A DNA stretch of 64,000 bases, taken from the NCBI RefSeq assembly GCF_003334305.1, contig NZ_QOWS01000010.1; one strand, given 5' to 3'. Below the pieces are notes generated by a model that saw nothing but the letters and a program-made list of their open reading frames with translations, had not been told where the DNA came from and did not search any database. The DNA is from Escherichia coli (GTDB lineage Bacteria > Pseudomonadota > Gammaproteobacteria > Enterobacterales > Enterobacteriaceae). Positions 63,813 to 64,000 of this stretch are shown one piece after another. Position 1 is the stretch's first letter. Every line of letters starts with the position of its first letter. The position numbers were made by a program, and so were the translations under genes.

Positions 63813-64000
63813 ACGTATTTCGGGGCGATTTTGTGCGTCCCGCAACATCTTTCCCCGTCATTTTGTTACTCCGCTTACATCACCCAGATTGATAGTAAAA
63901 GTTTGCAACAAGGGTGAAAGTCAGTACAATCCCTGCCCGAATGTGTGTAAACGTGAACGCAATCGATTACGTAAATGATAGAACTGTGAAACGAAACATA

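Follow-up and report, generated by a model that had tools for sequence, protein, structure and literature searches.

The yajI–tsx intergenic region

The analysed DNA, hereafter the window, is a stretch of 64 kb (64,000 nucleotides) of E. coli sequence; the flagged DNA forms its end and lies inside the intergenic region between yajI and tsx. In the list of open reading frames, the minus-strand genes thiL, nusB, ribH, ribD, and nrdR precede yajI, which comprises 179 codons on the plus strand and has its stop at 63812. A megablast search with positions 63600–64000 found the stretch in 5,425 of the 5,426 complete E. coli genomes, in many cases with 100% identity. In genome L001, which is 100% identical over this interval, the gene order nrdR, yajI, tsx is annotated; window positions equal L001 coordinates plus 61099, and the tsx start at L001 3012 lies 111 bp beyond the window end. 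The yajI–tsx order is the same in K-12 MG1655. The preliminary description had named tsx as the gene that follows yajI, and this is borne out by both the identical genome and K-12.

The yajI–tsx spacer is 298 bp long and holds both strings quoted in that description, tgtgtaaacgtgaacgcaatcgattacg at 63944–63971 and aactgtgaaacgaaacata at 63982–64000, each at the position given for it. Compared with K-12, the spacer carries six single-base differences, none of which falls in a promoter hexamer: four lie further upstream in the spacer, one between the hexamers of tsx-p1, and one just 3′ of the p1 -10 hexamer. Between 63935 and the tsx ATG, inclusive, there is no difference from MG1655, and published K-12 tsx data therefore apply base for base. 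The locus and its flanking genes are those of the K-12 tsx-p1/tsx-p2 region, which was reportedly studied by Bremer et al. in 1988 and 1990 and by Gerlach et al. in 1991. Nothing functional differs between the two, and the window covers the control region only as far as the core of the proximal CRP site; the -10 hexamer of tsx-p2, its predicted start, a 78-nt leader, and the tsx ATG fall within the 111 bp past the window end. The features of the region are as follows.

63273–63812, plus strand: coding sequence of yajI, a DUF3251 lipoprotein gene that precedes the control region; an open reading frame annotated as yajI in the identical E. coli genome and in K-12.
63902–63930, plus strand: candidate promoter tsx-p1, weak and of constitutive type; -35 TTTGCA (63902–63907), 17-bp spacer, -10 TACAAT (63925–63930).
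63949–63970, plus strand: distal, low-affinity CRP site of tsx-p2 (CRP-2), AAACGTGAacgcaaTCGATTAC; core 63952–63967 with 6/10 matches, invariant in 37 species.
63957–63972, no strand assigned: PurR operator, 16-bp near-palindrome ACGCAATCGATTACGT, overlapping CRP-2; from the published PurR ChIP-chip motif and a pattern match.
63971–63986, no strand assigned: spacer between the CRP sites, the reported CytR position; limits approximate, inferred from PMC3454398.
63982–64000, plus strand: proximal CRP site of tsx-p2 (CRP-1), AACTGTGAaacgaaACATA; core 63985–64000 complete, the final three flank bases of the 22-mer lying past the window end.

Conservation and the two tsx promoters

With a degenerate pattern coding for the Tsx motif DWWHQSVNV, 120 loci were retrieved, one per Enterobacterales species; the 330 bp preceding the ATG were taken from 107 of them, which together with the E. 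coli reference made 108 upstream regions. The aligned set comprised 37 distinct sequences from Escherichia, Citrobacter, Salmonella, Enterobacter, Leclercia, Kosakonia, and other genera. Across these 37 species, every column is invariant in the tsx-p2 TATAAT (6/6), in each of the CRP-1 half-sites TGTGA and ACATA (5/5 each, with 3/6 in the central spacer), and in the 23-bp block AAACGTGAACGCAATCGATTACG at 63949–63971 (23/23). The CRP-1 pattern TGTGAAAC..ACATA was present in 36 species, with its centre 115–122 bp from the ATG. Majority frequencies in the same alignment were 0.92 and 0.98 for the two p1 hexamers and 0.68 for the spacer between them, 0.75 downstream of p1, and 0.54 upstream of it.

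The full 22-mer of CRP-1 spans 63982–64003 and is cut by the window end; its core, TGTGAaacgaaACATA (63985–64000), extends exactly to the window's final base. This core matches TGTGA-N6-TCACA at 8 of 10 positions (two mismatches) and contributes the sole perfect TGTGA pentamer in the quoted strings (63985–63989). Beyond the window, the invariant TATAAT that forms the tsx-p2 -10 lies at L001 2922–2927, corresponding to 64021–64026. With a start predicted 7–8 nt after this TATAAT, itself outside the window, the CRP-1 centre (L001 2893.5) would lie 40.5–41.5 bp upstream of that start, a class II position; the placements at -41 and -74 used below depend on the same predicted start. Previous work describes tsx-p2 as the main promoter, under cAMP-CRP control, and tsx-p1 as a minor promoter repressed by DeoR (PMC8245764), and genomic SELEX recovered tsx as a known CRP target (PMC3105977). 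The preliminary description had ascribed CRP/CytR control to the tsx promoters collectively; this stands for p2 (PMC8245764, PMC3454398) and does not for p1, which is DeoR controlled. When full texts were searched for the literal site sequence, the sole match was a primer in PMC8245764.

At tsx, which belongs to the CytR regulon, two CRP sites serve both activation and repression, and CytR sits between the two CRP dimers, contacting both (PMC3454398). In the 37-species alignment CRP-1 and CRP-2 align without gaps between them, and their distance, gene-specific in cassettes of this kind, is thus conserved. The stretch between the two sites shows low conservation (majority frequency 0.72), as is usual for CytR sites. 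A search for CytR octamers of the form GTTGCATT gave two with two mismatches each (63956–63963 and 63990–63997) against 0.8 expected, which is at chance level, and no exact TGCAA or TTGCA pentamer occurs between or beside the CRP sites. Low CytR scores at tsx have been reported in the literature as well (PMC3454398).

Two further invariant stretches lie between the window end and the tsx ATG. The first, TTTTTGTGAGCA at L001 2902–2913 (64001–64012), is located between the CRP-1 core and the p2 -10 and is invariant in the 37 species; neither the CRP consensus nor the need for a -35 element explains this, and it could represent a CytR proximal half-site or the site of another factor. The second, CAGTGGC at L001 3000–3006, lies 6–12 nt before the tsx ATG and is invariant in 37/37 species. 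It is complementary to the 5′ seed, GCCACUG, of RybB, a small RNA known to target tsx. No Rfam family was matched in the tsx leader or spacer.

Upstream of CRP-2, the site at 63902–63930 scored 9/12 in a consensus scan, and we infer from the sequence that it is tsx-p1. Since DeoR represses tsx through palindromic operators (PMC5326754, PMC8245764), an operator repressing tsx-p1 could in principle lie within the flagged DNA, either at TGATAGAActgtgaaa (63976–63991) or in the block just 3′ of p1. A position 3′ of the p1 start would suit such an operator well, the left half of TGATAGAActgtgaaa agrees with TGTTAGAA at 7/8 positions, and the top DeoR-like matches in the spacer carry as few as five mismatches. 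Against such an operator, nothing within three mismatches of the palindrome TGTTAGAA-WW-CTAACA occurs in the tsx region; the closest DeoR-like sequences of the tsx spacer have 5–7 mismatches, with TGATAGAA (63976–63983) among those with five; and outside Escherichia and Citrobacter the TGATAGAA half-site is not conserved. The operator was thus not located in the spacer, and its presence at either position seems unlikely; it can coexist with the CRP, CytR, and PurR elements and would not take their place. Elsewhere in the window, a DeoR-like sequence, TGTTAGAATTATTACA at 13640–13655, matches at 14/16 positions and lies at the tomB stop, just upstream of hha. It is the sole match within three mismatches in the window, where about one is expected by chance, and so it is probably fortuitous.

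The distal CRP site and the PurR operator

The preliminary description referred to TGTGA-type half-sites in both strings. This holds for the second string, which carries TGTGA itself, and not for the first, in which the corresponding pentamers are TGTGT (63944–63948) and CGTGA (63952–63956). The quoted TGTGT is specific to Escherichia, with TACGC in other genera; the conserved half-site of the first string is CGTGA. The core of CRP-2, CGTGAacgcaaTCGAT, has its centre at L001 2860.5, 33 bp upstream of the CRP-1 centre. It deviates from TGTGA-N6-TCACA at 4 of 10 positions, a score consistent with a low-affinity site. Gerlach et al. in 1991 reportedly placed a high-affinity CRP site over the -35 region and, 33 bp away from it, a low-affinity site at about -74, CytR binding in the interval. 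The geometry of CRP-1 and CRP-2 reproduces this reported tsx-p2 layout. The expected alignment with the known tsx CRP sites accordingly fits in its 33-bp geometry, and with tsx as the downstream gene, the assignment of the last ~110 bp to the tsx promoter is supported. In a comparative study, ~14 bp separate the facing edges of the two tsx CRP sites (PMC3454398). The gap in the register used here is 11 bp, and the exact register of CRP-2 therefore stays slightly uncertain.

The invariant block, including the CRP-2 spacer, is too conserved for a weak CRP site; it also contains a PurR box. The pattern ANGCAAWCGNTTNCNT, a consensus of known pur operators, has one exact match in the 64-kb window, at 63957–63972, against 0.03 expected. 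The matching sequence, ACGCAATCGATTACGT, reads on the opposite strand as ACGTAATCGATTGCGT, the motif given for tsx in Table 1 of PMC3159470, and lies 139–154 bp from the tsx ATG, an offset that is equal in the window and in the published coordinates. Together, the table match and the shared offset support occupancy of this sequence by PurR in vivo; the same work reported direct repression of tsx by PurR, with the tsx region bound in ChIP-chip (PMC3159470). Of the 108 Enterobacterales tsx upstream regions, 80 carry a PurR box with no more than one mismatch, among them those of Serratia, Hafnia, Edwardsiella, and Pectobacterium. The predicted p1 start lies ~28 bp upstream of the box at 63957–63972, and the predicted p2 start ~69 bp downstream of it. 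This operator is the strongest element in the first string and was missed in the preliminary description.

The distal CRP site and the PurR operator overlap, as is evident from published coordinates, in the 24-bp block 63949–63972. Conceivably, the first string could hold a PurR operator only, in which case CRP-2 would have no function in CRP binding and would be conserved as a by-product of the box: a core with four mismatches in ten positions is no better than random, the PurR box matches its pattern perfectly and is bound in vivo, and its palindrome fully covers the spacer and right half of CRP-2. The edges of the invariant block speak against this. Conservation on the 3′ side falls within one base of the end of the PurR box, whereas on the 5′ side the invariance runs 8 bp past the edge of the box and starts at the 5′ end of CRP-2. 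These eight bases, AAACGTGA (63949–63956), are not explained by the PurR box. Because the block starts at the first base of the 22-bp CRP-2 and ends near the end of the PurR box, we read it as the union of both sites, a reading that, from the alignment, supports a real CRP-2 left half-site and the register 63952–63967. Gerlach et al. in 1991 are also said to have found two CRP sites in use at tsx, which counts against a PurR operator alone, as do the two CRP sites reported at tsx elsewhere (PMC3454398). We therefore regard it as very unlikely that CRP-2 is merely a shadow of the PurR operator.

A distal CRP site in a different register is likewise highly improbable. The register of TGTAAacgtgaACGCA (63946–63961) has three mismatches, one fewer than 63952–63967, and a TGTGT-led register would span 63944–63959. 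The left halves of these registers, TGTAA and TGTGT, are Escherichia-specific, with CGCAA or TACGC in other genera, and the spacing to CRP-1 would be 39–41 bp as against the reported 33. Both registers were rejected because their left halves are unconserved outside Escherichia.

With up to two mismatches, the pattern TGTGAN6TCACA occurs 13 times in the 64-kb window, compared with 27 ± 5 times in shuffled sequence; a match is thus no rarer than chance. CRP-1 is one of these 13 matches, and the best candidates for a second site in the first string have 3–4 mismatches. A match to the CRP core by itself proves nothing about function; position and conservation carry the case, and the sites were taken as real because of their position in the spacer and the conservation of their half-sites in 37 species. 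Although counts in the window that do not exceed those in shuffled sequence would suit chance matches devoid of a regulatory role, this explanation is effectively refuted by blocks that are invariant in 37 species amid diverged flanks, and it is rendered next to impossible by the identity with the PurR ChIP motif (PMC3159470) and by the literature on tsx regulation (PMC3454398, PMC8245764, PMC3105977).

Regulatory interpretation and other elements

Taken together, the flagged bases very probably constitute the upstream two thirds of the tsx control region, tsx being the gene for the outer-membrane nucleoside channel; they would comprise p1, the combined CRP-2/PurR element, the CytR spacer, and CRP-1. 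In the mechanism known from the literature, fitted to the geometry found here, cAMP-CRP bound at about -41 would activate p2 as a class II activator, aided by the site at about -74. CytR, placed between the two CRP dimers, would contact both and mask activation (anti-activation), and cytidine would release CytR. This is in line with the described properties of CytR, which binds DNA weakly, acts as an anti-activator through contact with CRP, and is released by cytidine (PMC3454398).

The tsx-p2 arrangement resembles those of deoP2, udp, cdd, and nupG, in which a weak CytR operator lies between tandem CRP sites, the proximal one at about -41, and repression comes about through contact of CytR with CRP (PMC3454398). 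It differs in the spacing of the CRP centres, 33 bp at tsx versus ~50–53 bp in nupG, udp, and deoP2, where edge-to-edge gaps are 27–31 bp (PMC3454398). In contrast to the deoP2, udp, cdd, and nupG cassettes, both CRP sites at tsx are weak, and a PurR operator overlaps the distal one. That operator is of the same type as those of purF, purT, codB, purB, and other genes: it is a 16-bp ANGCAAWCGNTTNCNT-type palindrome and is bound in vivo with and without adenine (PMC3159470). Unlike the operators of the pur regulon, the tsx PurR box lies atop an activator site and not over the core promoter. From this position away from the core promoter, PurR with its purine corepressor would therefore likely act by keeping CRP off the distal site, by obstructing p1 transcripts, or by both.

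A stronger version of this idea, which we offer tentatively and consider rather doubtful, is that the 24 bp at 63949–63972 form a deliberately fused element in which PurR and cAMP-CRP compete for overlapping DNA. If such a fused element exists, purine sufficiency would evict the distal activator at tsx-p2, a mode distinct from classical promoter occlusion, and tsx-p2 would be a three-input switch responding to carbon state, cytidine, and purines.

The tsx control region itself is already known: it has been dissected since 1988–1991, PurR binding was mapped in 2011, and nothing in the present analysis is new in this respect. The results matter little beyond correct annotation. In that annotation, the conserved core of the first motif should read as a PurR operator joined to the weak CRP site and not as a TGTGT half-site, and the flagged span should also include the probable p1 promoter under DeoR control. 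Phage T6 and colicin K use Tsx as their receptor, and albicidin is taken up through it, so the expression level of Tsx is of practical relevance; these known roles are left unchanged by the findings here.

In more distant Enterobacterales the promoter is laid out differently. Pantoea, Erwinia, Serratia, Rahnella, Rosenbergiella, and others (loci L010–L120) have a consensus-perfect or near-perfect CRP core 150–233 bp from the ATG, which replaces the weak CRP pair near -118 and -151, and the PurR box of Pantoea is a different one, ACGTAAACGGTTGCCT, at about -241. These species appear to have retained the same regulators with a different promoter layout.

At the yajI end of the spacer, a 7-bp hairpin, CGGGGCG-N8-CGTCCCG, lies at 63821–63842, just after the yajI stop. 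It shows one compensatory change in Citrobacter (CGGAACG/CGTTCCG) and has no T-run, and the RNA fold of 63805–63900 is unremarkable (z = -1.9); the hairpin may be a weak yajI terminator. Further downstream, the inverted repeat TGTTACTCCGCTTACA at 63864–63879 fits the CRP core with two mismatches and is kept in Escherichia and Citrobacter. We rejected it as a factor site, as the homologous bases in Enterobacter form the 3′ arm of the post-yajI hairpin, and it is probably a relic of that hairpin.

In the remainder of the window, Rfam identified the following elements, all of which are expected in this part of the E. coli chromosome.

559–623, minus strand: dnaX frameshift element.
17426–17522, minus strand: 4.5S/SRP RNA (ffs).
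35161–35256, plus strand: small RNA sraA.

Finally, the only CRP core in the window with zero mismatches is TGTGATCTTTATCACA at 13966–13981, a consensus-perfect sequence between hha (end 13889) and maa (start 14060). Since maa is among the genomic SELEX targets of CRP (PMC3105977), this site is probably already known.
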